Shown here piece by piece: positions 2,249 through 40,500 of a DNA stretch of 64,000 bases. The stretch lies in IMG/VR virus record IMGVR_UViG_2687453424_000001, one strand, 5' to 3'. Both the position numbers and the translations under genes were made by a program. The notes beneath the pieces are model-generated. The model was not told the DNA's origin, searched no databases, and was given only the letters and a program-made list of their open reading frames with translations. The DNA is from a virus. Its lineage: Duplodnaviria; Heunggongvirae; Uroviricota; Caudoviricetes. Every line of letters starts with the position of its first letter. Positions within the stretch are counted from its first letter, which is position 1.

Positions 2249-2280
2249 TTCACGATATTCCATTAACACCATTTCCTGAT

Positions 2281-2306
2281 GCCCGGCCATTGTGCCGGGT
2301 TTTTTT
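2281..2306 (+). terminator. Rho-independent (intrinsic) terminator between the 421-aa gene and the giant gene
   Basis: Stem CCCGGC (2282-2287) / GCCGGG (2294-2299) with 6-nt loop CATTGT, immediately followed by a run of seven T (2300-2306). Confidence 0.6.
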
Positions 2307-2317
2307 ATGGAGTCTGT

Positions 2318-5300
2318 ATGGCCTATTCAGAGGAACAGCGTCCTGAGGCGCAACTCGGTAACCAGAATCGTAACAGCCTGAACATTCAGCAACCCGGCGA
2401 AACTGACAGCTATGAAGCATTTTTCTCTGATCCGAATCGCTGGAAGGATAACAGTACGTCGTTCAGCCTGGGCGATGTATTGCCAACAATGGGTAAAGGT
2501 TTCGCCCAGTCCGTCCGGGGAACAGGGGAAATGGCCCGTGGACTCGGTGATGCGATGATTCAGAGCCCGGTAAAAACAGGGGTGCGTATTTTAAATGAGT
2601 TCAGCCGTATGGGGCTGCCGGGTGTCGCAACTGTGCAGGATATTTTTGCCGGTGGCAGCAGGGGGGCTGATGAGGTCATCGATACCCTGCCTGATGGCAA
2701 AAACGCGGTTACTGATACTGTCGGTAAAGGTCTGAAGGCAACCGGTAAGGCTGTCAGTGATGGTGCTGAAGCCACTGATGAATGGCTGACCGGTAAGATG
2801 TCGCCGGGTGCTGTTCGTGCGCTGAACACGCCAATGAGTGAAGGCTATGATGATCCCGCAGTCTGGCTGACGAAGGGGATGAATTTTGTCGGTGCCGTTG
2901 CGACAGATGTGTTTGCTGGCGGTGTGGCTAAAAAGGTGGGTGATGTCACACTGCGAAAAATGCTGACCGCCGGGCTGGAGAAAAAATACATCGCGGCAGG
3001 GATGCAGCCGGAAAGAGCCTCGGCACTGGCAGCAGAAGCTGTCGATAAAAAAATGCCGGATTTATTCCAGGCGGGCCTGATCACCCATTCAACAGCCAGT
3101 GCACAGGGGCAGAGTGCAATGGCGGCAGCAGATGCTGTTCTTAATGCGGATTACTCTGAGCTGGCGCAGTCACCGAAATTTCAGCAAATGTTTTTGTCCA
3201 TTGACGCCGACCCGCAGCACGCACAGCTTACTGATCGCCAGAAAATGGACCTGGCAAAAGAGCGTGTGGCTGATGAGGTGCGTGCGCAACTGGCAACCGA
3301 TCCTCAGTTGCTGGCTGTGAATGCCATGGCGGCAAAACTGGGCGATGCTCAGTTGCTTAATCTGGCGATGCGGGGCACAGCGAAGACCGTTAAAAGCGGC
3401 ATTGTCAGAAATGCCACTGCACAGGGGGCGATTAATGCGGCGCAGGGCGGCTATTCACGCTATCAGGAAAACACGGCATTGCGTGAGACCGCCGGAATGG
3501 ATGTATCGCCATGGGAGGGCGTGGCTGACGCAACGATCGAAGGTGCTGCCCTTGGTGCTGCGATGGGGGCTCCATTCGGTGCAGTTGCCGGATATCGTGG
3601 CAGACGTCAGGCCGCAGAAGAAACCGCCATGCGTGATGCTGAAACCGTGCAGCAGGACGACGCAGCCCCGCAACCAGAATCTGTTGATCCGGTGGCGCAG
3701 CATCGTGAATCCATGCAGGGGATGAATCGCGAGCAGCTTCTGGAGCAGTATGCTGATGCGGATATGGCGACAGAGGGTGACGCATCCGCAACTCATCGCC
3801 GGGAAGCCGCCAGCCAGCTGTTGAATGAACTGGACGAACAGGCGAAGCGACAGGCTGTGATGAATGAGCTGAAGGCGAAGCCGCGCCCTGAACTGCTTGA
3901 GGAATACCGAAAACTCAGCCTGAAGGAAGGGCGTACTGATACTGAAGAGCAGCAGTTTCAGGCAATACGTGAAGTCATTCGCCCACAACAGGAAGTGACG
4001 CCTGAAGCACAGTCACAGCCTGAAAATGCGGAGGATGGTAACGGGAGCATTTACCCGACGGTGCGGTTCCGGGACCCGAATGAAGTCCGCATTGAAATTA
4101 ACGGGAATGGTGCGTCCAGACCAGCGGAACGCATTGAAAAGGTGCGCCCGGACAACCGTTATTTCACGGATGAGAAAAGCGCCATGGGGAGTGATGTTTT
4201 CCGTAATGCCGCCGCCACCGGCCTGAAACCGTCCGTAGTGAAGAAAGGCGAGAATCAGTATGCCGTTGAAATGGATAATCCTGCGTTCTCTGAAGATGTG
4301 GCAACGGAAACCATTAACACCCTGGCTGACAGAGAGCGTATTGCTGATGCTGACCCGATGGAGCAGCCCGCGTTCATGCGTGACCCGCGATTCCGTGGTT
4401 TCACGGGGGATGATACGGAGGTACAGGCCCGCCTTGCCCGTGGCAACGCGCCGACGGCGGAGGAGCTTGTACGTTCACAGATGGCTGAAGGTGATGCCGG
4501 TCCGACAGCACAGGAGTTAACTGAGCGTCCGCGTCTGCCCGCCCCCGGCGATATTCATCCCGGACAGGGATATCCGTTACCGGGAGAGGTGGCGCGTACG
4601 CCGGATGAGAATCAGGCCGGACGTGGTGGTCGTTTTACCACAACCGGTGAGGTTAAGGGCCAGAGTTTCCAGAAAGGACGTGCTCCGGCACCGGAAAACG
4701 CCGCTGGTCGCCAGGGGGAAATACTGGAGGGCGAAACAGTTCGTCGTGGTCTGCCGTCACCGGATGCGCAGAACGCGACAGCACCGGTACGTGAAGGGCT
4801 ACCGGCTCCTGACATTGCGCGTAATGTTCGTATGCCTCAGCCTGAATCACTTCCCCGCACTGTACGGGACTCACTGCCTGAGCTTGCACAGCAGGCAGAA
4901 GTACGCCGACAGGCCGGAGGAAATCGTGACATCCCGCAGCCTGAGACAATCGCACCTGAATCTGAAACAACTGTCTCTACTGACAGGGAAGCTACCGTGC
5001 GCGGAGGTGAAGTCAGGGGCAAAAAAATTGAAGACTTTGGCGAGGAAATTAAAGGGGCAGCCAAACACCGTTATGCACAGCTTGCTGAAACACTGGGTAA
5101 AACGCTGGAAGACAGGGATTATGCCACGCAGCCGCTGAGCAAACTGTTCCCGAAACCGGACTACGCAAAACTGGCGAACGAAGGTGCCGATGCTGATACC
5201 CTGGCAATGATAGCGCTGTATCGTAGCGATATTCCGGCGAAGACGAAACACAATACGGCAGGCTGGGGGGAGAGCATAAAAAAAGTACGACACAGTGTAT

Positions 5301-8300
5301 CGGAAATGCTGAACGGAACGGTCAGCGCGAAACGCCTCGCAGAATGGATGGAAGGCAGAATGCCCTCCCGTTACGCGGACACCTGGCAACTGTTACGCAC
5401 TCTGCCACCCTCACAGATGGACAGAGCTTCTGCTTATCGGGTGGTATCGGGTGTGTATCAGGCGGCAGGAGGGAAGCGTTACGATCCGCCACAGAAACTT
5501 TATTCACTGCGCAATAAGGACAATAAGGGGAGTAACCTCTTTTTCTCGGAAAGCAGGGATGAATTACTGGCAAAGGCGAAAGTCTGGTTTGCAGAGCAGG
5601 AGGAAAAATCACAGGCGAAAGGTGATGAAAAAACAGCACCGTCACCGGATGACAAAATCCGCTTTGACGTTTACCGGAATACCCGCAGTGGCGATATTTT
5701 TATCGCTTACGGTAAAAACAAAATGCGGGTGAGAGGTGGCTTTAAGTCAGCCAGTGATGCGCGTAAGTACATTGATTCACATCGTGATGAGCTTGTTCGT
5801 CATGTGAAGGAGATGCGGGAGATTTCGCGTGAGGAGCAGCGCAACGCCACCAACCGCGACCGTACCGGACCAGAACGCCGCAAGGGGAATGTTTCACCGG
5901 AGCAGTTCAGTGATGCGTTTGGTTTCCGTGGTGTGCAGTTTGGTAACTACGTGGAAGGTCCGCGTCGTCAGGCTGATTTGAACCGGGCTTATGACTCGCT
6001 GCATGACCTTGCGGAAGTACTGAATGTACCGACAAAAGCGCTTTCCCTGAACGGTCGTCTTGGCCTGGCATTTGGTGCCCGTGGTAAGGGTAAGGCGGCG
6101 GCACACTATGAGTCAGGTGAGGTGGCAATCAACCTGACAAAAGGTAACGGACCGGGTGCGCTGGCGCACGAATGGTTCCATTCTCTGGATAATTATTTTG
6201 GTCGTTATGACGTTTCCAATGACGGGAAAATTACGTCAGGTGGCGACTTTATGACGGAAGCACAGCGTGTCAGGCGCATATTTAAAGACGGCAGGTATGT
6301 TGATGCTGAATATCCGGTACGTCAGGAGGTTTACGACGCTTTTAAAGGTGTGATTCAGGCCATTAAAAACAGTGACATGCCGCGTCGTTCAGCGCTTCTC
6401 GATGAGGTGCGCTCAAAACCGTACTGGTCAACGGATGTTGAAATGGCGGCACGTGCCTTTGAGCGTTATGTTCAGGATAAGGCGCGTATGGCTGGCGTGG
6501 AGAATGATTATCTGGTCAATATCCGTAAGGCACCTGAGCACAACACAGATAACACCTACGCTTATCCGACGAATGCGGAACTGGATGGCGGTATTCGTGA
6601 GGCATTCGATCACCTGTTCCGCACCCTGAAAACCCGTGAGACGGACAAGGGCGTTGCGTTTTATTCCCGTAAGGGCGTTACCCGCACACCTGAAGGTAAT
6701 CTCATTTCGGATGTTAACCGTAGTGCGGAAGCCAAAGGCAGCCCGGTCCCGCAGGTTGAAGCGGTTGCCCGTGGCGTGATGAGCGGCATTAAGGACAGTG
6801 ACCTGAAGGTCCGTGTGGTGAAGTCACAGAAAGAGGCTGAAGCGCTGGCGGGTGAATTGTTCGATGGTTACGGCAGGGTGCACGCATTCTATCGTCCGGA
6901 TAAACGAGAAATTGTCCTGGTGGCGGATAACATCCCTGACGGGCGGACCGTTCGCGAGAAGCTGCGTCACGAGATCATTCACCATGCCATGGAGCATGTT
7001 GTCACACCAGCGGAATATCAGACGATTATCAAAACCGTGCTGAAAACCCGCGACAGTGATAACGTCACCATCCGTGAAGCCTGGCGTAAGGTTGATGCTT
7101 CCTATGGTAAGGAATCACCGGAAGTACAGGCGGGTGAATTTCTGGCACATATGGCGGAGAAACAGCCGAATAAATTCGTGGCGGCATGGGAGCGTGTTGT
7201 TGCCCTGGTCAAAGGGGTACTGCGTCGTACGGGGTTACTGAAGCCGACGGAACTGAACGATATCAGACTTGTTCGCGAAACTATTCGCACGTTAGGCCTG
7301 CGTGTGCGGGAAGGTTACACGCCGCGTGAGGATGGCGCGGGCGCATCGTCTCAGTACTCCCGTAGTGGTAAACCTGATCCGTTCAAAGTGCCGGAAGGTG
7401 AGGGCGAGCGTTATCGTGATGACCTTGCCAGAATGATGAAGTCGTTACGTTCTGGTGCAATGACTGCAAACATCGGGCGTACGCCGCCGGTATTGCGCCA
7501 CCTTGGCGCACCAGATTTGCCGCTGGTTATCTCCCGCGACACTGTGCGGAAGGCAACCAATGGAGTGAAACATGTGGTGCCAATGGATGTTATCGAGAGA
7601 CTTCCTGAGCTGATGCACGATCCGGATGCAATTTACCGTTCCGCGACAGAAAGAAATGCGGTTGTGATGCTGCTTGATGCCGTGGATAAAAATGGTGATC
7701 CGGTGGTGTCGGCAGTGCACATGAAGGCAACAGATAAACGAATAGAAATTAACAAGGTGGCTTCTGTATATGGAACAAAAGGGGGGATGAACAAAGCTAA
7801 TAGCCTGGATAAAGCAGGTTTGACGCTTTACCGGAAGGAAAAATTAAGCCGCGATAACCCTCAGTACAGTGGGCTTCAATTGCCCAAAGAGGAGCGTTCT
7901 TATCGCGGCTCTGTAGATAAAATACTCTATCCTGAAGATATTCGCAATGGGCCGTATTACTCCCGTACCAGCAGTCTGACACCGGAAGAGACAATTGCAT
8001 CGCGTTTTGTGCGTCAGATGCAGGATAAATTCCAGGTGCTGAAAGCTGTTCAGGAGAACATCCGTAAAACTGGCGGAAAAATAGACGACAGTAACAACGC
8101 TTATATGGCGGAAGAACTCTTCCACGGGAAGGCGGAAAACGACCTGAACGTGATGAAGGAGCGCTACGTTCAGCCACTGGCTAAATTACTGGCGGACTAC
8201 AAAATTGCGCAGGCCGATCTGGATGAGTACCTCTACGCCCGTCACGCGCCGGAACGTAACGCGCATATCGCGAAAATCAACCCGAAAATGCCGGACGGCG

Positions 8301-10702
8301 GTTCGGGGATGACCAACGCGGAAGCGGCGGAAATCATGCAGCGTGTACGTAACAGTGGCAAACAGGCACAGTATGACCGTCTGGCAGGGATTATTGACGA
8401 TATGCTGGCCCGTCGCCGTGAGCTTATCCGTCAGGCCGGACTTGAAGAGAACGGTGTGGTGGATGCCTGGCAGAACGCCTACCGTTACTACGTTCCCCTG
8501 AAAGGTCAGGATGTTGACGGTGTGGTGTCACTGCCCCGTACAGGTAAGGGCTTCACCATCGGCGGACGTGAAAGCAGGCAGGCCATGGGGCGTGCATCCC
8601 GGGCACAGTCTCCGTCCACTCAGGCGATACAGGACCTGAGCGAATCGCTGATCCGCCATCGCAAAAACGAAGTGGGTAACGCCTTCCTGAAACTGGTGCA
8701 GGATAATCCCGACAAGGATTACTGGCAGGTATTCACCGATGACAGACCGGATACCATGCGGACGATTGCAGAGCGCAAGGACCAGGAAACTGGTGAAACC
8801 ATTCGCGAAGCTGTCGAACGCCCTGTACCGATGGCAATGATGGCAGACCGGTACTTCACCACCAAAAAGAACGGCAAAACGTACTACATCAAACTCCATG
8901 ATCCGCGCCTGATGCGTGCGATGAAGAATATGGGACCGGAAACCAGTAACGCCGTAATCCGCACGCTGGGGAAAGTTAACCGCTTCCTGGCAACGGTGAA
9001 CACGTCGTATAACCCGGAATTCCTGGTCAGTAACTTCATCCGTGACGTGCAGACGGCGGTGATGAACCTGAAGGCGGAGCAGGGAAGGAGCGACGGTAAA
9101 CTGAAAGGGCTGGATAACTTATCCGCCCTGGCTGTGGTGAAAGACAGCCGTTCTGCCATGTCAGCCGTATACGCCAGTCTGCGTGGTAAAACCCTCACGG
9201 GAAAAGGTGCACAGTGGCAGAAGGTGTGGAAAGAGTTTGTTGAGGACGGAGGGAAAACCGGCTGGTTTAACATGGGTGACCTTGAAGGCCAGCAGAAGGA
9301 AATGGATCGCCTTGTCTCACTGGCGAAGGGGGGATGGAAAGGCCAGAGTATCGGTGCATGGAATTCGTTCCTTAACCTTGTCGAGGATGCCAACGGTGCG
9401 GTTGAAAACGCTCTGCGTCTTTCTGCCTATAAGCACGCCCGTGATACCGGTTTGTCACGCCAGCAGGCGGCGTCTCTTGCCAAAAACATGACGGTGAACT
9501 TTAACCGTCGTGGTGAGCAGGGGGCGCTGATGAATTCGCTGTACATGTTCGCCAACGCCAGCATTCAGGGAACGGCAAATCTGGTGAGAACGCTCGGACA
9601 TCTTAATGGTGAGGGACCTTTACTGGAGCGCCTTCGCTGGAAGAATCTGAATGTTCCGCAGAAAATCGCGCTTGCCGCTGTGGGAGCAGGTTATCTGCTT
9701 GGCTCGCTTAACCGCAGCGTGGCGGGTGAGGATGATGACGGGGTTAACTGGTATGACAAGGTGCCGTCTCATGTGAAAGAGCGTAACCTCGTCATTATGA
9801 AATCGGTGTTCGGGGGCAAGGCCGGAGAGTACTGGAGTATTCCTCTGCCTTACGGGTACAACGTTTTCTTCCTGCTCGGGCATACTGCTGAAGGTGTGGC
9901 GGCGGGTGACCTGACGGCGTCCCGTGCTGCCGGTAATGTTGTTGGTGGTGTGCTTGGTGCATTCAGCCCGATTGGCAGTGAGACGTCGGAAACACTGTCC
10001 GGGGCATTGCTGAAAAATGCAGCGCCGACCATTCTGCGTCCGTTTGCGAACCTTGCCATGAATGAAAACTTCATGGGGGCGCAGATTTACCAGGAGAACA
10101 TGCCGTTTGGTACACCAAAACCTGACAGCCAGCTGGGAAGACGTTCAACGCCAGAAGCGTACAAGGCGTTTGCATCCTGGCTGAATGCGTTCTCTGGTGG
10201 CAGCCAGTACCGTCCCGGCGCGGTGGATATCACACCGGAATCGCTGAAATACTGGGTGGACTATATCTCCGGAGGGACAGGGCGCTTCATTTCCAAAACC
10301 ACGGATGCGGCGGTGAAATCGCTGAATGGTATTGATATACCGGAGCAGCAGGTGCCCTTCCTGGGGAAAATTTCAGGTGAGGTGATGCCGTATGCTGACC
10401 AGCAGAAGATGTACGACCGGATGACAGAGGTTGCGCAGTATCACGCAGAGCTGAAGAGTCTGACCGGTGCAGAAAGAACGGCGTTCATTGACGAGAACAA
10501 CGGAAAATTGTCGATGAACGGGCTTATGCAGGATACCCGGAAGAGACTGAAGGATTTGCGTAAACAGCGTGATGCCATTTACGCCGACAGTACTCTCAGT
10601 CTGGCGCAACAGTCGGCGATGGTGAAATCGGTTGAGCGGGATATGAAAATTGCCGTGGATCGGTTTAACCGCGAGTACAACAAAAAAGTGGGAGTGGAGT
10701 AA
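2318..10702 (+). CDS. giant multidomain protein (2,794 aa) with two HExxH zincin-type motifs; candidate virion-packaged/injected or polyvalent protein of a phage or conjugative element; family not identified
   Basis: Uninterrupted 8.4 kb reading frame, impossible by chance. ATG 2318 preceded by GGAG 2309-2312 (5-nt spacer) just after the terminator; the ORF-track start at 2279 would place the terminator hairpin inside the CDS. HEWFH at nt 6167-6181 (aa ~1284) and HEIIHHAMEH at nt 6968-6997 (aa ~1551); acidic/Pro-rich low-complexity region ~3650-4950; hydrophobic segments ~9660-9980; stop TAA 10700-10702. Confidence 0.8.
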   Translation: MAYSEEQRPEAQLGNQNRNSLNIQQPGETDSYEAFFSDPNRWKDNSTSFSLGDVLPTMGKGFAQSVRGTGEMARGLGDAMIQSPVKTGVRILNEFSRMGLPGVATVQDIFAGGSRGADEVIDTLPDGKNAVTDTVGKGLKATGKAVSDGAEATDEWLTGKMSPGAVRALNTPMSEGYDDPAVWLTKGMNFVGAVATDVFAGGVAKKVGDVTLRKMLTAGLEKKYIAAGMQPERASALAAEAVDKKMPDLFQAGLITHSTASAQGQSAMAAADAVLNADYSELAQSPKFQQMFLSIDADPQHAQLTDRQKMDLAKERVADEVRAQLATDPQLLAVNAMAAKLGDAQLLNLAMRGTAKTVKSGIVRNATAQGAINAAQGGYSRYQENTALRETAGMDVSPWEGVADATIEGAALGAAMGAPFGAVAGYRGRRQAAEETAMRDAETVQQDDAAPQPESVDPVAQHRESMQGMNREQLLEQYADADMATEGDASATHRREAASQLLNELDEQAKRQAVMNELKAKPRPELLEEYRKLSLKEGRTDTEEQQFQAIREVIRPQQEVTPEAQSQPENAEDGNGSIYPTVRFRDPNEVRIEINGNGASRPAERIEKVRPDNRYFTDEKSAMGSDVFRNAAATGLKPSVVKKGENQYAVEMDNPAFSEDVATETINTLADRERIADADPMEQPAFMRDPRFRGFTGDDTEVQARLARGNAPTAEELVRSQMAEGDAGPTAQELTERPRLPAPGDIHPGQGYPLPGEVARTPDENQAGRGGRFTTTGEVKGQSFQKGRAPAPENAAGRQGEILEGETVRRGLPSPDAQNATAPVREGLPAPDIARNVRMPQPESLPRTVRDSLPELAQQAEVRRQAGGNRDIPQPETIAPESETTVSTDREATVRGGEVRGKKIEDFGEEIKGAAKHRYAQLAETLGKTLEDRDYATQPLSKLFPKPDYAKLANEGADADTLAMIALYRSDIPAKTKHNTAGWGESIKKVRHSVSEMLNGTVSAKRLAEWMEGRMPSRYADTWQLLRTLPPSQMDRASAYRVVSGVYQAAGGKRYDPPQKLYSLRNKDNKGSNLFFSESRDELLAKAKVWFAEQEEKSQAKGDEKTAPSPDDKIRFDVYRNTRSGDIFIAYGKNKMRVRGGFKSASDARKYIDSHRDELVRHVKEMREISREEQRNATNRDRTGPERRKGNVSPEQFSDAFGFRGVQFGNYVEGPRRQADLNRAYDSLHDLAEVLNVPTKALSLNGRLGLAFGARGKGKAAAHYESGEVAINLTKGNGPGALAHEWFHSLDNYFGRYDVSNDGKITSGGDFMTEAQRVRRIFKDGRYVDAEYPVRQEVYDAFKGVIQAIKNSDMPRRSALLDEVRSKPYWSTDVEMAARAFERYVQDKARMAGVENDYLVNIRKAPEHNTDNTYAYPTNAELDGGIREAFDHLFRTLKTRETDKGVAFYSRKGVTRTPEGNLISDVNRSAEAKGSPVPQVEAVARGVMSGIKDSDLKVRVVKSQKEAEALAGELFDGYGRVHAFYRPDKREIVLVADNIPDGRTVREKLRHEIIHHAMEHVVTPAEYQTIIKTVLKTRDSDNVTIREAWRKVDASYGKESPEVQAGEFLAHMAEKQPNKFVAAWERVVALVKGVLRRTGLLKPTELNDIRLVRETIRTLGLRVREGYTPREDGAGASSQYSRSGKPDPFKVPEGEGERYRDDLARMMKSLRSGAMTANIGRTPPVLRHLGAPDLPLVISRDTVRKATNGVKHVVPMDVIERLPELMHDPDAIYRSATERNAVVMLLDAVDKNGDPVVSAVHMKATDKRIEINKVASVYGTKGGMNKANSLDKAGLTLYRKEKLSRDNPQYSGLQLPKEERSYRGSVDKILYPEDIRNGPYYSRTSSLTPEETIASRFVRQMQDKFQVLKAVQENIRKTGGKIDDSNNAYMAEELFHGKAENDLNVMKERYVQPLAKLLADYKIAQADLDEYLYARHAPERNAHIAKINPKMPDGGSGMTNAEAAEIMQRVRNSGKQAQYDRLAGIIDDMLARRRELIRQAGLEENGVVDAWQNAYRYYVPLKGQDVDGVVSLPRTGKGFTIGGRESRQAMGRASRAQSPSTQAIQDLSESLIRHRKNEVGNAFLKLVQDNPDKDYWQVFTDDRPDTMRTIAERKDQETGETIREAVERPVPMAMMADRYFTTKKNGKTYYIKLHDPRLMRAMKNMGPETSNAVIRTLGKVNRFLATVNTSYNPEFLVSNFIRDVQTAVMNLKAEQGRSDGKLKGLDNLSALAVVKDSRSAMSAVYASLRGKTLTGKGAQWQKVWKEFVEDGGKTGWFNMGDLEGQQKEMDRLVSLAKGGWKGQSIGAWNSFLNLVEDANGAVENALRLSAYKHARDTGLSRQQAASLAKNMTVNFNRRGEQGALMNSLYMFANASIQGTANLVRTLGHLNGEGPLLERLRWKNLNVPQKIALAAVGAGYLLGSLNRSVAGEDDDGVNWYDKVPSHVKERNLVIMKSVFGGKAGEYWSIPLPYGYNVFFLLGHTAEGVAAGDLTASRAAGNVVGGVLGAFSPIGSETSETLSGALLKNAAPTILRPFANLAMNENFMGAQIYQENMPFGTPKPDSQLGRRSTPEAYKAFASWLNAFSGGSQYRPGAVDITPESLKYWVDYISGGTGRFISKTTDAAVKSLNGIDIPEQQVPFLGKISGEVMPYADQQKMYDRMTEVAQYHAELKSLTGAERTAFIDENNGKLSMNGLMQDTRKRLKDLRKQRDAIYADSTLSLAQQSAMVKSVERDMKIAVDRFNREYNKKVGVE

Positions 10703-15245: not shown

Positions 15246-18063
15246 NNNNNNNNNNNNNNNNNNNNNNNNNNNNNNNNNNNNNNNNNNNNNNNNNNNNNNN
15301 NNNNNNNNNNNNNNNNNNNNNNNNNNNNNNNNNNNNNNNNNNNNNNNNNNNNNNNNNNNNNNNNNNNNNNNNNNNNNNNNNNNNNNNNNNNNNNNNNNNN
15401 NNNNNNNNNNNNNNNNNNNNNNNNNNNNNNNNNNNNNNNNNNNNNNNNNNNNNNNNNNNNNNNNNNNNNNNNNNNNNNNNNNNNNNNNNNNNNNNNNNNN
15501 NNNNNNNNNNNNNNNNNNNNNNNNNNNNNNNNNNNNNNNNNNNNNNNNNNNNNNNNNNNNNNNNNNNNNNNNNNNNNNNNNNNNNNNNNNNNNNNNNNNN
15601 NNNNNNNNNNNNNNNNNNNNNNNNNNNNNNNNNNNNNNNNNNNNNNNNNNNNNNNNNNNNNNNNNNNNNNNNNNNNNNNNNNNNNNNNNNNNNNNNNNNN
15701 NNNNNNNNNNNNNNNNNNNNNNNNNNNNNNNNNNNNNNNNNNNNNNNNNNNNNNNNNNNNNNNNNNNNNNNNNNNNNNNNNNNNNNNNNNNNNNNNNNNN
15801 NNNNNNNNNNNNNNNNNNNNNNNNNNNNNNNNNNNNNNNNNNNNNNNNNNNNNNNNNNNNNNNNNNNNNNNNNNNNNNNNNNNNNNNNNNNNNNNNNNNN
15901 NNNNNNNNNNNNNNNNNNNNNNNNNNNNNNNNNNNNNNNNNNNNNNNNNNNNNNNNNNNNNNNNNNNNNNNNNNNNNNNNNNNNNNNNNNNNNNNNNNNN
16001 NNNNNNNNNNNNNNNNNNNNNNNNNNNNNNNNNNNNNNNNNNNNNNNNNNNNNNNNNNNNNNNNNNNNNNNNNNNNNNNNNNNNNNNNNNNNNNNNNNNN
16101 NNNNNNNNNNNNNNNNNNNNNNNNNNNNNNNNNNNNNNNNNNNNNNNNNNNNNNNNNNNNNNNNNNNNNNNNNNNNNNNNNNNNNNNNNNNNNNNNNNNN
16201 NNNNNNNNNNNNNNNNNNNNNNNNNNNNNNNNNNNNNNNNNNNNNNNNNNNNNNNNNNNNNNNNNNNNNNNNNNNNNNNNNNNNNNNNNNNNNNNNNNNN
16301 NNNNNNNNNNNNNNNNNNNNNNNNNNNNNNNNNNNNNNNNNNNNNNNNNNNNNNNNNNNNNNNNNNNNNNNNNNNNNNNNNNNNNNNNNNNNNNNNNNNN
16401 NNNNNNNNNNNNNNNNNNNNNNNNNNNNNNNNNNNNNNNNNNNNNNNNNNNNNNNNNNNNNNNNNNNNNNNNNNNNNNNNNNNNNNNNNNNNNNNNNNNN
16501 NNNNNNNNNNNNNNNNNNNNNNNNNNNNNNNNNNNNNNNNNNNNNNNNNNNNNNNNNNNNNNNNNNNNNNNNNNNNNNNNNNNNNNNNNNNNNNNNNNNN
16601 NNNNNNNNNNNNNNNNNNNNNNNNNNNNNNNNNNNNNNNNNNNNNNNNNNNNNNNNNNNNNNNNNNNNNNNNNNNNNNNNNNNNNNNNNNNNNNNNNNNN
16701 NNNNNNNNNNNNNNNNNNNNNNNNNNNNNNNNNNNNNNNNNNNNNNNNNNNNNNNNNNNNNNNNNNNNNNNNNNNNNNNNNNNNNNNNNNNNNNNNNNNN
16801 NNNNNNNNNNNNNNNNNNNNNNNNNNNNNNNNNNNNNNNNNNNNNNNNNNNNNNNNNNNNNNNNNNNNNNNNNNNNNNNNNNNNNNNNNNNNNNNNNNNN
16901 NNNNNNNNNNNNNNNNNNNNNNNNNNNNNNNNNNNNNNNNNNNNNNNNNNNNNNNNNNNNNNNNNNNNNNNNNNNNNNNNNNNNNNNNNNNNNNNNNNNN
17001 NNNNNNNNNNNNNNNNNNNNNNNNNNNNNNNNNNNNNNNNNNNNNNNNNNNNNNNNNNNNNNNNNNNNNNNNNNNNNNNNNNNNNNNNNNNNNNNNNNNN
17101 NNNNNNNNNNNNNNNNNNNNNNNNNNNNNNNNNNNNNNNNNNNNNNNNNNNNNNNNNNNNNNNNNNNNNNNNNNNNNNNNNNNNNNNNNNNNNNNNNNNN
17201 NNNNNNNNNNNNNNNNNNNNNNNNNNNNNNNNNNNNNNNNNNNNNNNNNNNNNNNNNNNNNNNNNNNNNNNNNNNNNNNNNNNNNNNNNNNNNNNNNNNN
17301 NNNNNNNNNNNNNNNNNNNNNNNNNNNNNNNNNNNNNNNNNNNNNNNNNNNNNNNNNNNNNNNNNNNNNNNNNNNNNNNNNNNNNNNNNNNNNNNNNNNN
17401 NNNNNNNNNNNNNNNNNNNNNNNNNNNNNNNNNNNNNNNNNNNNNNNNNNNNNNNNNNNNNNNNNNNNNNNNNNNNNNNNNNNNNNNNNNNNNNNNNNNN
17501 NNNNNNNNNNNNNNNNNNNNNNNNNNNNNNNNNNNNNNNNNNNNNNNNNNNNNNNNNNNNNNNNNNNNNNNNNNNNNNNNNNNNNNNNNNNNNNNNNNNN
17601 NNNNNNNNNNNNNNNNNNNNNNNNNNNNNNNNNNNNNNNNNNNNNNNNNNNNNNNNNNNNNNNNNNNNNNNNNNNNNNNNNNNNNNNNNNNNNNNNNNNN
17701 NNNNNNNNNNNNNNNNNNNNNNNNNNNNNNNNNNNNNNNNNNNNNNNNNNNNNNNNNNNNNNNNNNNNNNNNNNNNNNNNNNNNNNNNNNNNNNNNNNNN
17801 NNNNNNNNNNNNNNNNNNNNNNNNNNNNNNNNNNNNNNNNNNNNNNNNNNNNNNNNNNNNNNNNNNNNNNNNNNNNNNNNNNNNNNNNNNNNNNNNNNNN
17901 NNNNNNNNNNNNNNNNNNNNNNNNNNNNNNNNNNNNNNNNNNNNNNNNNNNNNNNNNNNNNNNNNNNNNNNNNNNNNNNNNNNNNNNNNNNNNNNNNNNN
18001 NNNNNNNNNNNNNNNNNNNNNNNNNNNNNNNNNNNNNNNNNNNNNNNNNNNNNNNNNNNNNNN
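15246..18063. other. assembly gap (N run)
   Basis: Uninterrupted N. Confidence 1.
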
Positions 18064-18676: not shown

Positions 18677-20412
18677 NNNNNNNNNNNNNNNNNNNNNNNN
18701 NNNNNNNNNNNNNNNNNNNNNNNNNNNNNNNNNNNNNNNNNNNNNNNNNNNNNNNNNNNNNNNNNNNNNNNNNNNNNNNNNNNNNNNNNNNNNNNNNNNN
18801 NNNNNNNNNNNNNNNNNNNNNNNNNNNNNNNNNNNNNNNNNNNNNNNNNNNNNNNNNNNNNNNNNNNNNNNNNNNNNNNNNNNNNNNNNNNNNNNNNNNN
18901 NNNNNNNNNNNNNNNNNNNNNNNNNNNNNNNNNNNNNNNNNNNNNNNNNNNNNNNNNNNNNNNNNNNNNNNNNNNNNNNNNNNNNNNNNNNNNNNNNNNN
19001 NNNNNNNNNNNNNNNNNNNNNNNNNNNNNNNNNNNNNNNNNNNNNNNNNNNNNNNNNNNNNNNNNNNNNNNNNNNNNNNNNNNNNNNNNNNNNNNNNNNN
19101 NNNNNNNNNNNNNNNNNNNNNNNNNNNNNNNNNNNNNNNNNNNNNNNNNNNNNNNNNNNNNNNNNNNNNNNNNNNNNNNNNNNNNNNNNNNNNNNNNNNN
19201 NNNNNNNNNNNNNNNNNNNNNNNNNNNNNNNNNNNNNNNNNNNNNNNNNNNNNNNNNNNNNNNNNNNNNNNNNNNNNNNNNNNNNNNNNNNNNNNNNNNN
19301 NNNNNNNNNNNNNNNNNNNNNNNNNNNNNNNNNNNNNNNNNNNNNNNNNNNNNNNNNNNNNNNNNNNNNNNNNNNNNNNNNNNNNNNNNNNNNNNNNNNN
19401 NNNNNNNNNNNNNNNNNNNNNNNNNNNNNNNNNNNNNNNNNNNNNNNNNNNNNNNNNNNNNNNNNNNNNNNNNNNNNNNNNNNNNNNNNNNNNNNNNNNN
19501 NNNNNNNNNNNNNNNNNNNNNNNNNNNNNNNNNNNNNNNNNNNNNNNNNNNNNNNNNNNNNNNNNNNNNNNNNNNNNNNNNNNNNNNNNNNNNNNNNNNN
19601 NNNNNNNNNNNNNNNNNNNNNNNNNNNNNNNNNNNNNNNNNNNNNNNNNNNNNNNNNNNNNNNNNNNNNNNNNNNNNNNNNNNNNNNNNNNNNNNNNNNN
19701 NNNNNNNNNNNNNNNNNNNNNNNNNNNNNNNNNNNNNNNNNNNNNNNNNNNNNNNNNNNNNNNNNNNNNNNNNNNNNNNNNNNNNNNNNNNNNNNNNNNN
19801 NNNNNNNNNNNNNNNNNNNNNNNNNNNNNNNNNNNNNNNNNNNNNNNNNNNNNNNNNNNNNNNNNNNNNNNNNNNNNNNNNNNNNNNNNNNNNNNNNNNN
19901 NNNNNNNNNNNNNNNNNNNNNNNNNNNNNNNNNNNNNNNNNNNNNNNNNNNNNNNNNNNNNNNNNNNNNNNNNNNNNNNNNNNNNNNNNNNNNNNNNNNN
20001 NNNNNNNNNNNNNNNNNNNNNNNNNNNNNNNNNNNNNNNNNNNNNNNNNNNNNNNNNNNNNNNNNNNNNNNNNNNNNNNNNNNNNNNNNNNNNNNNNNNN
20101 NNNNNNNNNNNNNNNNNNNNNNNNNNNNNNNNNNNNNNNNNNNNNNNNNNNNNNNNNNNNNNNNNNNNNNNNNNNNNNNNNNNNNNNNNNNNNNNNNNNN
20201 NNNNNNNNNNNNNNNNNNNNNNNNNNNNNNNNNNNNNNNNNNNNNNNNNNNNNNNNNNNNNNNNNNNNNNNNNNNNNNNNNNNNNNNNNNNNNNNNNNNN
20301 NNNNNNNNNNNNNNNNNNNNNNNNNNNNNNNNNNNNNNNNNNNNNNNNNNNNNNNNNNNNNNNNNNNNNNNNNNNNNNNNNNNNNNNNNNNNNNNNNNNN
20401 NNNNNNNNNNNN
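18677..20412. other. assembly gap (N run)
   Basis: Uninterrupted N. Confidence 1.
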
Positions 20413-22653: not shown

Positions 22654-25600
22654 NNNNNNNNNNNNNNNNNNNNNNNNNNNNNNNNNNNNNNNNNNNNNNN
22701 NNNNNNNNNNNNNNNNNNNNNNNNNNNNNNNNNNNNNNNNNNNNNNNNNNNNNNNNNNNNNNNNNNNNNNNNNNNNNNNNNNNNNNNNNNNNNNNNNNNN
22801 NNNNNNNNNNNNNNNNNNNNNNNNNNNNNNNNNNNNNNNNNNNNNNNNNNNNNNNNNNNNNNNNNNNNNNNNNNNNNNNNNNNNNNNNNNNNNNNNNNNN
22901 NNNNNNNNNNNNNNNNNNNNNNNNNNNNNNNNNNNNNNNNNNNNNNNNNNNNNNNNNNNNNNNNNNNNNNNNNNNNNNNNNNNNNNNNNNNNNNNNNNNN
23001 NNNNNNNNNNNNNNNNNNNNNNNNNNNNNNNNNNNNNNNNNNNNNNNNNNNNNNNNNNNNNNNNNNNNNNNNNNNNNNNNNNNNNNNNNNNNNNNNNNNN
23101 NNNNNNNNNNNNNNNNNNNNNNNNNNNNNNNNNNNNNNNNNNNNNNNNNNNNNNNNNNNNNNNNNNNNNNNNNNNNNNNNNNNNNNNNNNNNNNNNNNNN
23201 NNNNNNNNNNNNNNNNNNNNNNNNNNNNNNNNNNNNNNNNNNNNNNNNNNNNNNNNNNNNNNNNNNNNNNNNNNNNNNNNNNNNNNNNNNNNNNNNNNNN
23301 NNNNNNNNNNNNNNNNNNNNNNNNNNNNNNNNNNNNNNNNNNNNNNNNNNNNNNNNNNNNNNNNNNNNNNNNNNNNNNNNNNNNNNNNNNNNNNNNNNNN
23401 NNNNNNNNNNNNNNNNNNNNNNNNNNNNNNNNNNNNNNNNNNNNNNNNNNNNNNNNNNNNNNNNNNNNNNNNNNNNNNNNNNNNNNNNNNNNNNNNNNNN
23501 NNNNNNNNNNNNNNNNNNNNNNNNNNNNNNNNNNNNNNNNNNNNNNNNNNNNNNNNNNNNNNNNNNNNNNNNNNNNNNNNNNNNNNNNNNNNNNNNNNNN
23601 NNNNNNNNNNNNNNNNNNNNNNNNNNNNNNNNNNNNNNNNNNNNNNNNNNNNNNNNNNNNNNNNNNNNNNNNNNNNNNNNNNNNNNNNNNNNNNNNNNNN
23701 NNNNNNNNNNNNNNNNNNNNNNNNNNNNNNNNNNNNNNNNNNNNNNNNNNNNNNNNNNNNNNNNNNNNNNNNNNNNNNNNNNNNNNNNNNNNNNNNNNNN
23801 NNNNNNNNNNNNNNNNNNNNNNNNNNNNNNNNNNNNNNNNNNNNNNNNNNNNNNNNNNNNNNNNNNNNNNNNNNNNNNNNNNNNNNNNNNNNNNNNNNNN
23901 NNNNNNNNNNNNNNNNNNNNNNNNNNNNNNNNNNNNNNNNNNNNNNNNNNNNNNNNNNNNNNNNNNNNNNNNNNNNNNNNNNNNNNNNNNNNNNNNNNNN
24001 NNNNNNNNNNNNNNNNNNNNNNNNNNNNNNNNNNNNNNNNNNNNNNNNNNNNNNNNNNNNNNNNNNNNNNNNNNNNNNNNNNNNNNNNNNNNNNNNNNNN
24101 NNNNNNNNNNNNNNNNNNNNNNNNNNNNNNNNNNNNNNNNNNNNNNNNNNNNNNNNNNNNNNNNNNNNNNNNNNNNNNNNNNNNNNNNNNNNNNNNNNNN
24201 NNNNNNNNNNNNNNNNNNNNNNNNNNNNNNNNNNNNNNNNNNNNNNNNNNNNNNNNNNNNNNNNNNNNNNNNNNNNNNNNNNNNNNNNNNNNNNNNNNNN
24301 NNNNNNNNNNNNNNNNNNNNNNNNNNNNNNNNNNNNNNNNNNNNNNNNNNNNNNNNNNNNNNNNNNNNNNNNNNNNNNNNNNNNNNNNNNNNNNNNNNNN
24401 NNNNNNNNNNNNNNNNNNNNNNNNNNNNNNNNNNNNNNNNNNNNNNNNNNNNNNNNNNNNNNNNNNNNNNNNNNNNNNNNNNNNNNNNNNNNNNNNNNNN
24501 NNNNNNNNNNNNNNNNNNNNNNNNNNNNNNNNNNNNNNNNNNNNNNNNNNNNNNNNNNNNNNNNNNNNNNNNNNNNNNNNNNNNNNNNNNNNNNNNNNNN
24601 NNNNNNNNNNNNNNNNNNNNNNNNNNNNNNNNNNNNNNNNNNNNNNNNNNNNNNNNNNNNNNNNNNNNNNNNNNNNNNNNNNNNNNNNNNNNNNNNNNNN
24701 NNNNNNNNNNNNNNNNNNNNNNNNNNNNNNNNNNNNNNNNNNNNNNNNNNNNNNNNNNNNNNNNNNNNNNNNNNNNNNNNNNNNNNNNNNNNNNNNNNNN
24801 NNNNNNNNNNNNNNNNNNNNNNNNNNNNNNNNNNNNNNNNNNNNNNNNNNNNNNNNNNNNNNNNNNNNNNNNNNNNNNNNNNNNNNNNNNNNNNNNNNNN
24901 NNNNNNNNNNNNNNNNNNNNNNNNNNNNNNNNNNNNNNNNNNNNNNNNNNNNNNNNNNNNNNNNNNNNNNNNNNNNNNNNNNNNNNNNNNNNNNNNNNNN
25001 NNNNNNNNNNNNNNNNNNNNNNNNNNNNNNNNNNNNNNNNNNNNNNNNNNNNNNNNNNNNNNNNNNNNNNNNNNNNNNNNNNNNNNNNNNNNNNNNNNNN
25101 NNNNNNNNNNNNNNNNNNNNNNNNNNNNNNNNNNNNNNNNNNNNNNNNNNNNNNNNNNNNNNNNNNNNNNNNNNNNNNNNNNNNNNNNNNNNNNNNNNNN
25201 NNNNNNNNNNNNNNNNNNNNNNNNNNNNNNNNNNNNNNNNNNNNNNNNNNNNNNNNNNNNNNNNNNNNNNNNNNNNNNNNNNNNNNNNNNNNNNNNNNNN
25301 NNNNNNNNNNNNNNNNNNNNNNNNNNNNNNNNNNNNNNNNNNNNNNNNNNNNNNNNNNNNNNNNNNNNNNNNNNNNNNNNNNNNNNNNNNNNNNNNNNNN
25401 NNNNNNNNNNNNNNNNNNNNNNNNNNNNNNNNNNNNNNNNNNNNNNNNNNNNNNNNNNNNNNNNNNNNNNNNNNNNNNNNNNNNNNNNNNNNNNNNNNNN
25501 NNNNNNNNNNNNNNNNNNNNNNNNNNNNNNNNNNNNNNNNNNNNNNNNNNNNNNNNNNNNNNNNNNNNNNNNNNNNNNNNNNNNNNNNNNNNNNNNNNNN

Positions 25601-27075
25601 NNNNNNNNNNNNNNNNNNNNNNNNNNNNNNNNNNNNNNNNNNNNNNNNNNNNNNNNNNNNNNNNNNNNNNNNNNNNNNNNNNNNNNNNNNNNNNNNNNNN
25701 NNNNNNNNNNNNNNNNNNNNNNNNNNNNNNNNNNNNNNNNNNNNNNNNNNNNNNNNNNNNNNNNNNNNNNNNNNNNNNNNNNNNNNNNNNNNNNNNNNNN
25801 NNNNNNNNNNNNNNNNNNNNNNNNNNNNNNNNNNNNNNNNNNNNNNNNNNNNNNNNNNNNNNNNNNNNNNNNNNNNNNNNNNNNNNNNNNNNNNNNNNNN
25901 NNNNNNNNNNNNNNNNNNNNNNNNNNNNNNNNNNNNNNNNNNNNNNNNNNNNNNNNNNNNNNNNNNNNNNNNNNNNNNNNNNNNNNNNNNNNNNNNNNNN
26001 NNNNNNNNNNNNNNNNNNNNNNNNNNNNNNNNNNNNNNNNNNNNNNNNNNNNNNNNNNNNNNNNNNNNNNNNNNNNNNNNNNNNNNNNNNNNNNNNNNNN
26101 NNNNNNNNNNNNNNNNNNNNNNNNNNNNNNNNNNNNNNNNNNNNNNNNNNNNNNNNNNNNNNNNNNNNNNNNNNNNNNNNNNNNNNNNNNNNNNNNNNNN
26201 NNNNNNNNNNNNNNNNNNNNNNNNNNNNNNNNNNNNNNNNNNNNNNNNNNNNNNNNNNNNNNNNNNNNNNNNNNNNNNNNNNNNNNNNNNNNNNNNNNNN
26301 NNNNNNNNNNNNNNNNNNNNNNNNNNNNNNNNNNNNNNNNNNNNNNNNNNNNNNNNNNNNNNNNNNNNNNNNNNNNNNNNNNNNNNNNNNNNNNNNNNNN
26401 NNNNNNNNNNNNNNNNNNNNNNNNNNNNNNNNNNNNNNNNNNNNNNNNNNNNNNNNNNNNNNNNNNNNNNNNNNNNNNNNNNNNNNNNNNNNNNNNNNNN
26501 NNNNNNNNNNNNNNNNNNNNNNNNNNNNNNNNNNNNNNNNNNNNNNNNNNNNNNNNNNNNNNNNNNNNNNNNNNNNNNNNNNNNNNNNNNNNNNNNNNNN
26601 NNNNNNNNNNNNNNNNNNNNNNNNNNNNNNNNNNNNNNNNNNNNNNNNNNNNNNNNNNNNNNNNNNNNNNNNNNNNNNNNNNNNNNNNNNNNNNNNNNNN
26701 NNNNNNNNNNNNNNNNNNNNNNNNNNNNNNNNNNNNNNNNNNNNNNNNNNNNNNNNNNNNNNNNNNNNNNNNNNNNNNNNNNNNNNNNNNNNNNNNNNNN
26801 NNNNNNNNNNNNNNNNNNNNNNNNNNNNNNNNNNNNNNNNNNNNNNNNNNNNNNNNNNNNNNNNNNNNNNNNNNNNNNNNNNNNNNNNNNNNNNNNNNNN
26901 NNNNNNNNNNNNNNNNNNNNNNNNNNNNNNNNNNNNNNNNNNNNNNNNNNNNNNNNNNNNNNNNNNNNNNNNNNNNNNNNNNNNNNNNNNNNNNNNNNNN
27001 NNNNNNNNNNNNNNNNNNNNNNNNNNNNNNNNNNNNNNNNNNNNNNNNNNNNNNNNNNNNNNNNNNNNNNNNNNN
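22654..27075. other. assembly gap (N run)
   Basis: Uninterrupted N. Confidence 1.
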
Positions 27076-37596: not shown

Positions 37597-40500
37597 NNNN
37601 NNNNNNNNNNNNNNNNNNNNNNNNNNNNNNNNNNNNNNNNNNNNNNNNNNNNNNNNNNNNNNNNNNNNNNNNNNNNNNNNNNNNNNNNNNNNNNNNNNNN
37701 NNNNNNNNNNNNNNNNNNNNNNNNNNNNNNNNNNNNNNNNNNNNNNNNNNNNNNNNNNNNNNNNNNNNNNNNNNNNNNNNNNNNNNNNNNNNNNNNNNNN
37801 NNNNNNNNNNNNNNNNNNNNNNNNNNNNNNNNNNNNNNNNNNNNNNNNNNNNNNNNNNNNNNNNNNNNNNNNNNNNNNNNNNNNNNNNNNNNNNNNNNNN
37901 NNNNNNNNNNNNNNNNNNNNNNNNNNNNNNNNNNNNNNNNNNNNNNNNNNNNNNNNNNNNNNNNNNNNNNNNNNNNNNNNNNNNNNNNNNNNNNNNNNNN
38001 NNNNNNNNNNNNNNNNNNNNNNNNNNNNNNNNNNNNNNNNNNNNNNNNNNNNNNNNNNNNNNNNNNNNNNNNNNNNNNNNNNNNNNNNNNNNNNNNNNNN
38101 NNNNNNNNNNNNNNNNNNNNNNNNNNNNNNNNNNNNNNNNNNNNNNNNNNNNNNNNNNNNNNNNNNNNNNNNNNNNNNNNNNNNNNNNNNNNNNNNNNNN
38201 NNNNNNNNNNNNNNNNNNNNNNNNNNNNNNNNNNNNNNNNNNNNNNNNNNNNNNNNNNNNNNNNNNNNNNNNNNNNNNNNNNNNNNNNNNNNNNNNNNNN
38301 NNNNNNNNNNNNNNNNNNNNNNNNNNNNNNNNNNNNNNNNNNNNNNNNNNNNNNNNNNNNNNNNNNNNNNNNNNNNNNNNNNNNNNNNNNNNNNNNNNNN
38401 NNNNNNNNNNNNNNNNNNNNNNNNNNNNNNNNNNNNNNNNNNNNNNNNNNNNNNNNNNNNNNNNNNNNNNNNNNNNNNNNNNNNNNNNNNNNNNNNNNNN
38501 NNNNNNNNNNNNNNNNNNNNNNNNNNNNNNNNNNNNNNNNNNNNNNNNNNNNNNNNNNNNNNNNNNNNNNNNNNNNNNNNNNNNNNNNNNNNNNNNNNNN
38601 NNNNNNNNNNNNNNNNNNNNNNNNNNNNNNNNNNNNNNNNNNNNNNNNNNNNNNNNNNNNNNNNNNNNNNNNNNNNNNNNNNNNNNNNNNNNNNNNNNNN
38701 NNNNNNNNNNNNNNNNNNNNNNNNNNNNNNNNNNNNNNNNNNNNNNNNNNNNNNNNNNNNNNNNNNNNNNNNNNNNNNNNNNNNNNNNNNNNNNNNNNNN
38801 NNNNNNNNNNNNNNNNNNNNNNNNNNNNNNNNNNNNNNNNNNNNNNNNNNNNNNNNNNNNNNNNNNNNNNNNNNNNNNNNNNNNNNNNNNNNNNNNNNNN
38901 NNNNNNNNNNNNNNNNNNNNNNNNNNNNNNNNNNNNNNNNNNNNNNNNNNNNNNNNNNNNNNNNNNNNNNNNNNNNNNNNNNNNNNNNNNNNNNNNNNNN
39001 NNNNNNNNNNNNNNNNNNNNNNNNNNNNNNNNNNNNNNNNNNNNNNNNNNNNNNNNNNNNNNNNNNNNNNNNNNNNNNNNNNNNNNNNNNNNNNNNNNNN
39101 NNNNNNNNNNNNNNNNNNNNNNNNNNNNNNNNNNNNNNNNNNNNNNNNNNNNNNNNNNNNNNNNNNNNNNNNNNNNNNNNNNNNNNNNNNNNNNNNNNNN
39201 NNNNNNNNNNNNNNNNNNNNNNNNNNNNNNNNNNNNNNNNNNNNNNNNNNNNNNNNNNNNNNNNNNNNNNNNNNNNNNNNNNNNNNNNNNNNNNNNNNNN
39301 NNNNNNNNNNNNNNNNNNNNNNNNNNNNNNNNNNNNNNNNNNNNNNNNNNNNNNNNNNNNNNNNNNNNNNNNNNNNNNNNNNNNNNNNNNNNNNNNNNNN
39401 NNNNNNNNNNNNNNNNNNNNNNNNNNNNNNNNNNNNNNNNNNNNNNNNNNNNNNNNNNNNNNNNNNNNNNNNNNNNNNNNNNNNNNNNNNNNNNNNNNNN
39501 NNNNNNNNNNNNNNNNNNNNNNNNNNNNNNNNNNNNNNNNNNNNNNNNNNNNNNNNNNNNNNNNNNNNNNNNNNNNNNNNNNNNNNNNNNNNNNNNNNNN
39601 NNNNNNNNNNNNNNNNNNNNNNNNNNNNNNNNNNNNNNNNNNNNNNNNNNNNNNNNNNNNNNNNNNNNNNNNNNNNNNNNNNNNNNNNNNNNNNNNNNNN
39701 NNNNNNNNNNNNNNNNNNNNNNNNNNNNNNNNNNNNNNNNNNNNNNNNNNNNNNNNNNNNNNNNNNNNNNNNNNNNNNNNNNNNNNNNNNNNNNNNNNNN
39801 NNNNNNNNNNNNNNNNNNNNNNNNNNNNNNNNNNNNNNNNNNNNNNNNNNNNNNNNNNNNNNNNNNNNNNNNNNNNNNNNNNNNNNNNNNNNNNNNNNNN
39901 NNNNNNNNNNNNNNNNNNNNNNNNNNNNNNNNNNNNNNNNNNNNNNNNNNNNNNNNNNNNNNNNNNNNNNNNNNNNNNNNNNNNNNNNNNNNNNNNNNNN
40001 NNNNNNNNNNNNNNNNNNNNNNNNNNNNNNNNNNNNNNNNNNNNNNNNNNNNNNNNNNNNNNNNNNNNNNNNNNNNNNNNNNNNNNNNNNNNNNNNNNNN
40101 NNNNNNNNNNNNNNNNNNNNNNNNNNNNNNNNNNNNNNNNNNNNNNNNNNNNNNNNNNNNNNNNNNNNNNNNNNNNNNNNNNNNNNNNNNNNNNNNNNNN
40201 NNNNNNNNNNNNNNNNNNNNNNNNNNNNNNNNNNNNNNNNNNNNNNNNNNNNNNNNNNNNNNNNNNNNNNNNNNNNNNNNNNNNNNNNNNNNNNNNNNNN
40301 NNNNNNNNNNNNNNNNNNNNNNNNNNNNNNNNNNNNNNNNNNNNNNNNNNNNNNNNNNNNNNNNNNNNNNNNNNNNNNNNNNNNNNNNNNNNNNNNNNNN
40401 NNNNNNNNNNNNNNNNNNNNNNNNNNNNNNNNNNNNNNNNNNNNNNNNNNNNNNNNNNNNNNNNNNNNNNNNNNNNNNNNNNNNNNNNNNNNNNNNNNNN

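Follow-up and report, generated by a model that had tools for sequence, protein, structure and literature searches.

The giant open reading frame (ORF; 2279-10702, plus strand) studied here lies in a 64,000-nucleotide stretch of viral DNA, IMG/VR virus record IMGVR_UViG_2687453424_000001, to which we refer in its whole length as the window. According to the ORF list and its translation, it encodes a protein of 2,807 amino acids (aa). The window carries a short-tailed Shiga toxin (Stx)-converting prophage: its positions 5800-7400 are 100% identical to Escherichia phage phi24B, and 186 records of Stx-converting short-tailed phages match them at 90-100% identity. The giant ORF is gp47 of phi24B, orf71 of VT2-Sakai and ORF80 (ECs1242) of Sp5, and its product goes under the names 'hypothetical protein' or 'LPD5 domain-containing protein' in public records. 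We consider it likely that the two HExxH motifs in the middle of this protein mark the metal-binding and catalytic sites of two distinct gluzincin-type zincin-like metallopeptidase domains, lying next to each other within a polyvalent phage protein.

Domain layout and the two HExxH motifs

Pfam searches with the giant protein recovered the domains LPD5, LPD1, MuF_C and LPD38, all of which exceed the Pfam cut-offs, and neither of the HExxH motifs falls within a Pfam domain match. The features of the region are:

5468..5917, plus strand, aa 1064-1213: LPD5 (Pfam PF18799, E = 6.5e-45)
5861..6640, plus strand, aa 1195-1454: peptidase domain 1, gluzincin-like, of the CLCA_X type
6104..6106, plus strand: H1276 (in AAAHYE) at the end of β-strand 2 (model strand E81-84), conserved in 53/54 homologues
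6167-6181, plus strand, aa 1297-1301: motif 1, HEWFH, in the context GPGALAHEWFHSLDNYFGRYD
6167..6190, plus strand, aa 1297-1304: HEWFHSLD, with the predicted two His ligands, the predicted catalytic Glu and an Asp three residues on
6398-6637, plus strand, aa 1374-1453: Pfam LPD1, the C-terminal half of peptidase domain 1
6422..6463, plus strand: Y1382 and the helix EMAARAFE (E1388-E1395), inside Pfam LPD1
6776..7348, plus strand, aa 1500-1690: peptidase domain 2, a predicted minimal gluzincin-like domain
6968-6982, plus strand, aa 1564-1568: motif 2, HEIIH, the start of HEIIHHAMEH (6968-6997, aa 1564-1573)
7103..7159, plus strand: Y1609 and the helix EFLAHMAE (E1620-E1627), from the 161-copy alignment and the model
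7565..7834, plus strand, aa 1763-1852: MuF_C (Pfam PF18819, E = 1.2e-17), directly after peptidase domain 2
9746..10363, plus strand, aa 2490-2695: LPD38 (Pfam PF18857, E = 8.5e-49), a phage-only C-terminal module

The presence of LPD5, LPD1, MuF_C, LPD38 and two peptidase domains in a single very large polypeptide is what marks the product as a polyvalent protein. Each peptidase is present in one copy, with no extra or degenerate copies of either detected in the giant protein, and Pfam found no lysozyme or transglycosylase domain in it.

An initial annotation of this DNA had pointed to HEWFH and HEIIHHAMEH as strings fitting the zinc-metallopeptidase consensus, and both are present in the translation exactly where it placed them. 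Separated by 267 residues, motif 1 and motif 2 are the only HExxH matches in the entire protein. Histidine is rare in it (37 His, next to 201 Glu, in 2,807 residues), and therefore only 0.035 HExxH occurrences are expected from its composition. The initial annotation had allowed that one chance occurrence would not be unlikely, which proves too cautious, as the probability of at least one is 0.034; that of at least two is 6e-4 analytically and 5e-4 by 20,000 shuffles. Its remark that two such motifs in one mid-protein region are notable is thus well founded, both motifs being conserved in distant homologues as well. At the level of sequence, it is this conservation that constitutes the real test against the alternative that both strings are chance occurrences devoid of functional meaning. 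This alternative can appeal to the shortness of HExxH, about half of whose database occurrences lie outside known zincins (PMC3650047). However, quite apart from the low probability of a pair in a protein of this composition, it is confronted with motifs that stay near-invariant in homologues down to ~25-40% identity, along with a distal Glu and Tyr, and with a fold that matches the zincins. We regard a chance origin of the motifs as ruled out by their conservation, and the probability left to it as practically negligible.

Conservation and predicted fold of the two domains

The profile searches proposed in the initial annotation were successful in one respect and failed in another: the NCBIfam model CLCA_X (NF041907) matched aa 1195-1450 from position 3 to 245 of its 250 (E = 2.1e-43), whereas Pfam searches with the isolated domain 1 region (E <= 10) gave noise only, with no curated peptidase family above its gathering threshold. 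The CLCA_X score of 148.6 bits is less than the curated cut-off of 260, because NF041907 is tuned to a ~250-aa stand-alone subfamily, and the match is hence not one that is both full-length and above the cut-off. By its sequence, domain 1 is homologous to CLCA_X while standing outside the narrow subfamily captured by the NCBIfam model. Sequence searches against PDB chains, both with the single sequence and with profiles of the two domains, returned nothing relevant. A homologue search with domain 1 recovered 202 proteins, many of which are stand-alone proteins of ~330 aa with LPD5 and LPD1; in these, as in the giant homologues, LPD5 is always positioned immediately upstream of peptidase domain 1.

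Conservation in domain 1 was counted in an alignment of 54 sequences. Within and directly after motif 1, H1297 and H1301 are each conserved in 52 of these, and E1298, W1299 and D1304 in 53. Further along the chain, Y1382, E1388, R1392 and F1394 are present in all 54, and E1395 in 53. The AlphaFold2 model of the domain (pLDDT 90.8) displays a core of mixed β-sheet and helix ahead of the HExxH helix, with motif 1 on helix H101-118 and E1388 on helix H192-210, and its overall fold resembles that of solved zincins. From its conservation and its place in the model, E1388 probably serves as the third zinc ligand in domain 1, accompanied by a Tyr as in M34-type gluzincins. D1304 provides an alternative to it, a downstream conserved Asp having been suggested as a ligand in CLCA_X (PMC3650047). 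Since the helix region bearing the invariant Y1382 and E1388 lies inside Pfam LPD1, LPD1 amounts to the C-terminal half of the peptidase, and from aa ~1195 onward through LPD1 the chain folds as a single unit in the model. Thus, Pfam LPD1 is the Glu-helix half of domain 1, and not an independent module here. Taken together, domain 1 is a gluzincin-like peptidase domain belonging to the CLCA_X / phage-type clade of polyvalent metallopeptidases (MPTases).

A stand-alone protein of 335 aa, with LPD5, the CLCA_X-type peptidase and LPD1, is also encoded in metagenomic phage contigs (L002, L003, 5569-9008). Its gene directly follows those for a GGACT/AIG2 cyclotransferase, Amidoligase_2 and GATase_6, and is situated ~2 kb upstream of terminase and portal. 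These neighbours suggest that the peptidase in this case is tied to a peptide-ligation or peptide-modification cassette.

Domain 2 (aa 1500-1690) has no functional model in Pfam, NCBIfam or PHROG, its PHROG matches being to families of 'unknown function', and Pfam Peptidase_M76 was seen only as a sub-threshold match (E = 0.05-0.2, in 5 of 29 members). While a word-indexed search with this domain yielded only close relatives and one Pectobacterium protein, an exhaustive search of representatives recovered 341 clusters at E <= 1e-3, including 78 at E <= 1e-10. Nearly all members of these clusters are proteins of 1,000-6,000 aa, with some stand-alone versions of 210-270 aa. Conservation was counted in 161 aligned copies of the domain: E1565, H1568 and E1620 are present in every one of them and H1564 in 159, and all four are invariant in a smaller alignment (A3) of 29 sequences. 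Y1609 and A1623 (93% each) and E1627 (94%) are close to this level in the 161 copies. In the structural model (pLDDT 85.9), motif 2 is on helix H56-75 and E1620 on helix H115-128.

The initial annotation had read HEIIHHAMEH as also supplying a downstream Glu and an extra His. The HEIIH portion stands as a near-invariant helix motif; the remainder does not, as E1572 (11%) and H1573 (4%) are too poorly conserved for a third ligand and were rejected, with H1569 at 34%. Instead, conservation and the model point to E1620, 52 residues past HEIIH, as the likely third ligand for zinc in domain 2. We also considered an HExxxH reading of motif 2, as the Pectobacterium homologue appears to have HEVIAHH; this was rejected, because all 161 homologues have a His at the fourth position after H1564, and the Pectobacterium string reflects an insertion or an alignment shift. 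A Foldseek search of the PDB with the domain 2 model gave helical-repeat noise only, and the structural matches to the minimal zincins listed below are short, with just 64-83 residues aligning. Domain 2 is very probably a second, smaller gluzincin-like domain, with weaker fold support than domain 1.

The suggestion of embedded peptidase modules made in the initial annotation is thus supported: there are two domains that are predicted to fold separately, each with near-invariant residues and with the elements in the order typical of zincins. The structure prediction that it had proposed as a check places both motifs on α-helices, following a sheet and followed in turn by a later helix with the invariant Glu.

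When the two domains were compared with each other by hhalign, the alignment (P = 2.6e-4, probability 42%) took in strands 2 and 3 together with the HExxH helix. Among giant proteins (at least 1,000 aa) with domain 2, 25 of 123 also contain domain 1, and wherever LPD5 was additionally detected among those 25 the order is LPD5, peptidase 1, peptidase 2. Tandem copies of domain 2 occur in 13 of 147 giant proteins; as the architectures were counted with single-sequence phmmer, these figures are lower bounds. Examples of homologues in which tandem or added modules accompany domain 2 are P0141, P0145 and P0153. Some join it to helicase- or methylase-type modules, such as P0153 with ResIII/Helicase_C, or the giant proteins of Vibrio phages labelled 'N-6 adenine-specific DNA methylase'.

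Relationships to known zincins and polyvalent proteins

CLCA_X was defined in 2013 as a zincin family and as the phage- and plasmid-rich sister of the self-cleaving CLCA metalloprotease domain (Lenart et al., PMC3650047). The giant protein from phage VT2phi_272 (gi 315274348, residues 1195-1467 of 2,806) is included in the Fig. S4 alignment and Table S2 of that study. Domain 1 has HExxH followed by a conserved Asp (HEWFHSLD, with D1304 in 53/54) and is phage-borne, and hence belongs to CLCA_X as defined in that paper; unlike the proteins described by NF041907, it forms part of a 2,807-aa protein and follows LPD5.

Polyvalent proteins were described as very large proteins of many domains, brought into the cell together with the DNA of phages and conjugative elements (Iyer, Burroughs, Anand, de Souza and Aravind 2017, PMC5512222). 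According to that survey, the zincin-like MPTase is their commonest hub domain, with ~36% of polyvalent proteins having one to five, and more than one being found in 8% of the MPTase-bearing ones. Its phage-type MPTase clade is marked by a His that closes strand 2 and by an Asp located three positions beyond HExxH; domain 1 has both, as H1276 (53/54) and D1304 (53/54). Furthermore, like other polyvalent proteins, the giant protein is encoded among late genes and is found in the virion, as indicated by annotation and literature; it is a virion-packaged polyvalent phage protein. Domain 2 is of the same general class as the MPTases of polyvalent proteins, for which PMC5512222 distinguishes 12 clades. 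A difference from Pfam concerns LPD1, which is modelled there as a separate domain.

The MuF-C domain, which follows domain 2, was defined in the same survey as PBECR, a predicted RNase-fold domain (barnase/EndoU/RelE-like; PMC5512222). MuF_C is a predicted RNase-fold module and no metallopeptidase, the HExxH domains lying upstream of it at aa 1195-1690.

Among solved structures, the M34-type gluzincins (anthrax lethal factor, PPEP-2/-3), and also MtfA (M90), have 12-15% identity to domain 1, without a profile match at the sequence level. In contrast to the M34-type gluzincins, domain 1 has an insert of ~85 residues between the catalytic helices, besides the conserved H1276 and D1304. The minimal zincins set against domain 2 comprise the 3e11-type 'zincin-like metalloprotease', the minigluzincins projannalysin and selecase, the M78-like IrrE/PprI and CapP, SprT/Spartan/Wss1, and the C-terminal domain of ArdC. 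None shows a sequence-level relation to domain 2, which differs from them by a signature of its own, R-H-E-x-x-H-(Y/H)-G-L ... Y ... A-E-E-x-x-A-x-x-A-E, and by extra C-terminal helices.

Two further virion-packaged proteins with an embedded HExxH domain are P1 DdrB, which is proteolytically processed, and the N4 virion RNA polymerase (vRNAP), which is packaged uncut (PMC5512222). By eye, the motif context of P1 DdrB, VAVNLN...ALWHELGHHLE, is like that of domain 1, but hidden Markov models of domains 1 and 2 gave no significant match to its HExxH region (aa 872). The Bcep22-like podoviruses of Burkholderia have portal, capsid and head-closure proteins homologous to those of 933W, and in the same late-module position they encode a 4,515-aa 'DarB-like' virion protein, which likewise ends in LPD38 (PMC9144972). 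Hence, the slot for a giant protein is conserved in this podovirus lineage, with its internal modules being swapped.

Packaging and possible roles of the peptidases

In the VT2-Sakai annotation the giant gene is located at the end of the Stx phage late region. Sp5 particles lacking ORF80 package DNA, but are non-infectious, and have heads without the tail fibre (PMC5155283). In phi24B, gp47 is abundant in virions, was unseen in the cryo-EM map and has been proposed to be an ejection protein (bioRxiv 10.64898/2026.04.10.717836). The accompanying proteomics table gives slice counts per protein and totals per peptide, from which fragment boundaries are not derivable. The gp47 spectra in successive gel slices number 2,188 (top), 1,686, 1,187 and 1,260, followed by 663 in the slice with the maximum of the 80-kDa portal; they are thus concentrated in the top four slices, above that of the portal. 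The peptides detected cover residues 162-177, 513-528, 1222-1233, 1548-1560, 2056-2073 and 2662-2673 (phi24B numbering). Slices and peptides spanning all regions imply that gp47 is packaged as a very large species, untrimmed unlike P1 DdrB, and it appears to be packaged largely uncut. Consequently, self-processing, if there is any, would most likely take place after ejection.

The start codon of the giant ORF is ambiguous (window 2279-2320): the longest ORF beginning with ATG gives 2,807 aa, the annotation of Sp5/933W (2,793 aa) starts at M14 (nucleotide 2318), PHROG phrog_616 matches the protein in full length from aa 14, and the phi24B preprint uses a gp47 version of 2,811 aa (bioRxiv 10.64898/2026.04.10.717836). 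In its N-terminal part, the segment GAALGAAMGAPFGAVAGY (aa 419-446; window 3533-3616) has weak, sub-threshold Pfam matches to Gly-zipper_YMGG, Gly-zipper_OmpA and Romo1, and may be a membrane-inserting stretch of the proposed ejection protein. The other features recorded in the window are:

983-2248: ORF of 421 aa, phi24B gp48, directly upstream of the giant ORF
15246-18063, 18677-20412, 22654-27075, 31817-36643, 37597-41958, 43062-47938, 53378-58728 and 61768-64000: runs of N

Judged from its position and size, the 421-aa ORF is probably ORF79 of Sp5 (VT2-Sakai orf70), which is required for infectivity and dispensable for packaging (PMC5155283); gp48 was found in phi24B virions under the tentative label 'Transcription factor?' in the proteomics table (bioRxiv 10.64898/2026.04.10.717836). 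Each 1.7-5.4 kb long, the eight runs of N hide a large share of the window beyond the prophage end, from ~15.2 kb, and create the spurious 'ORFs' of 1,000-1,800 aa that appear in all six frames of the ORF list. A search of the window for tRNA genes found none.

If both domains are indeed gluzincins, then in each of them the two His and the distal Glu would hold Zn2+, and the Glu of the motif would activate a water molecule for the cleavage of a peptide bond. As for the substrate, our preferred role, offered as a guess and tentatively, is that the domains carry out limited cleavage of their own 305-kDa protein, either in cis or in trans, once the capsid has released this protein together with the DNA. 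Such cleavage would free individual modules, e.g., the MuF-C/PBECR RNase-like domain and the C-terminal part with LPD38. Autoprocessing by the MPTases of polyvalent proteins has been proposed previously (PMC5512222), and it accords with the position of the peptidases between other modules. Certain observations weigh against this proposal and the peptidase assignment behind it: 1) we found no reports in the literature of enzymatic activity or metal binding for either domain or for their homologues, members of CLCA_X included. 2) Both domains have stand-alone forms, which offer no polyprotein to be cut in cis. 3) The slice and peptide data from phi24B oppose self-processing before packaging.

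The same stand-alone forms, namely the ~330-aa LPD5-peptidase 1-LPD1 proteins of phage contigs and the 210-270-aa proteins consisting of domain 2 only, speak for a different role, in which the peptidases are injected effectors that cut proteins of the host or of competitors in trans, such as defence proteins, regulators or envelope proteins. Structural neighbours, including anthrax lethal factor, the Pro-Pro endopeptidases, IrrE/PprI, CapP and Spartan, act in trans, gp47 is apparently packaged largely uncut, and this role has been named as the alternative one for polyvalent MPTases (PMC5512222). However, the recurrent occurrence of MPTases between modules in polyvalent proteins suits self-processing at least equally well, and we regard the cutting of host proteins as nearly as likely as self-processing, though not quite its equal.

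The phi24B cryo-EM preprint offers a third role, that the metallopeptidase digests peptidoglycan, allowing the ejected giant protein to build a periplasmic channel (bioRxiv 10.64898/2026.04.10.717836). Indeed, a short-tailed phage must cross the envelope, the related giant proteins of Bcep22-like phages have a lytic transglycosylase domain (PMC9144972), and deletion of the gene abolishes infectivity (PMC5155283). Nevertheless, the preprint assigns the activity to 'MuF-C', which is the PBECR RNase-fold domain, and the giant protein, as noted above, is devoid of a lysozyme or transglycosylase domain detectable by Pfam. Moreover, the structural neighbours listed for the two domains include no solved cell-wall peptidase, being endopeptidases of proteins and peptides. 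Phage cell-wall peptidases are typically of the M15, M23 or CHAP/NlpC types, unlike the HExxH gluzincins. Of the roles that had been suggested, cell-wall cleavage has the weakest support and is, in our estimate, improbable. We hold it to be about as improbable, or marginally more so, that domain 2 is a zincin-fold hydrolase of non-peptide substrates, e.g., a metallo-RNase like YbeY, or that one or both domains are inactive structural or binding modules. An HExxH-domain oxygenase is found lower in the lists of structural neighbours of both domains, domain 2 adjoins an RNase-fold module, and the motif is altered in a few homologues (domain 1, 1-2 of 54; domain 2, 2 of 161 at H1564). Yet HExxH and the distal Glu are invariant inclusive of the predicted catalytic Glu, a residue that a module of purely structural function could do without, and the motif of YbeY is of the form HxxxHxxxxxH. 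A bolder combination, in which domain 2 represents a distinct and widespread zincin family (at least 341 cluster representatives) and the giant protein is packaged intact, as a polyprotein that this domain and the CLCA_X domain cleave only after ejection, so that the RNase-like module, among other effectors, is set free inside the cell just infected, strikes us as unlikely, albeit well ahead of the last two proposals.

The finding of two zincin-like domains, though correct, is largely known, as motif 1 of the giant protein was published in 2013 (PMC3650047) and the presence of multiple zincins in polyvalent proteins in 2017 (PMC5512222). The gain lies in improved annotation and in a hypothesis open to testing, not in a discovery; what stays useful includes the reinterpretation of LPD1 and the observation that no curated family model exists for domain 2. 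The annotation now extends to individual residues, H1276, H1297, E1298, H1301, D1304, Y1382 and E1388 in domain 1, and H1564, E1565, H1568, Y1609 and E1620 in domain 2. In addition, it corrects the attribution in the 2026 phi24B preprint, where MuF-C is called the 'metallopeptidase domain'. Short-tailed Stx phages carry Shiga toxin genes from one E. coli to another, and the giant gene is both their largest and essential for infectivity. If the protein is truly packaged whole and cut after ejection, its peptidase activity would be an essential step, and a druggable one, in infection and lysogenic conversion by Stx phages.

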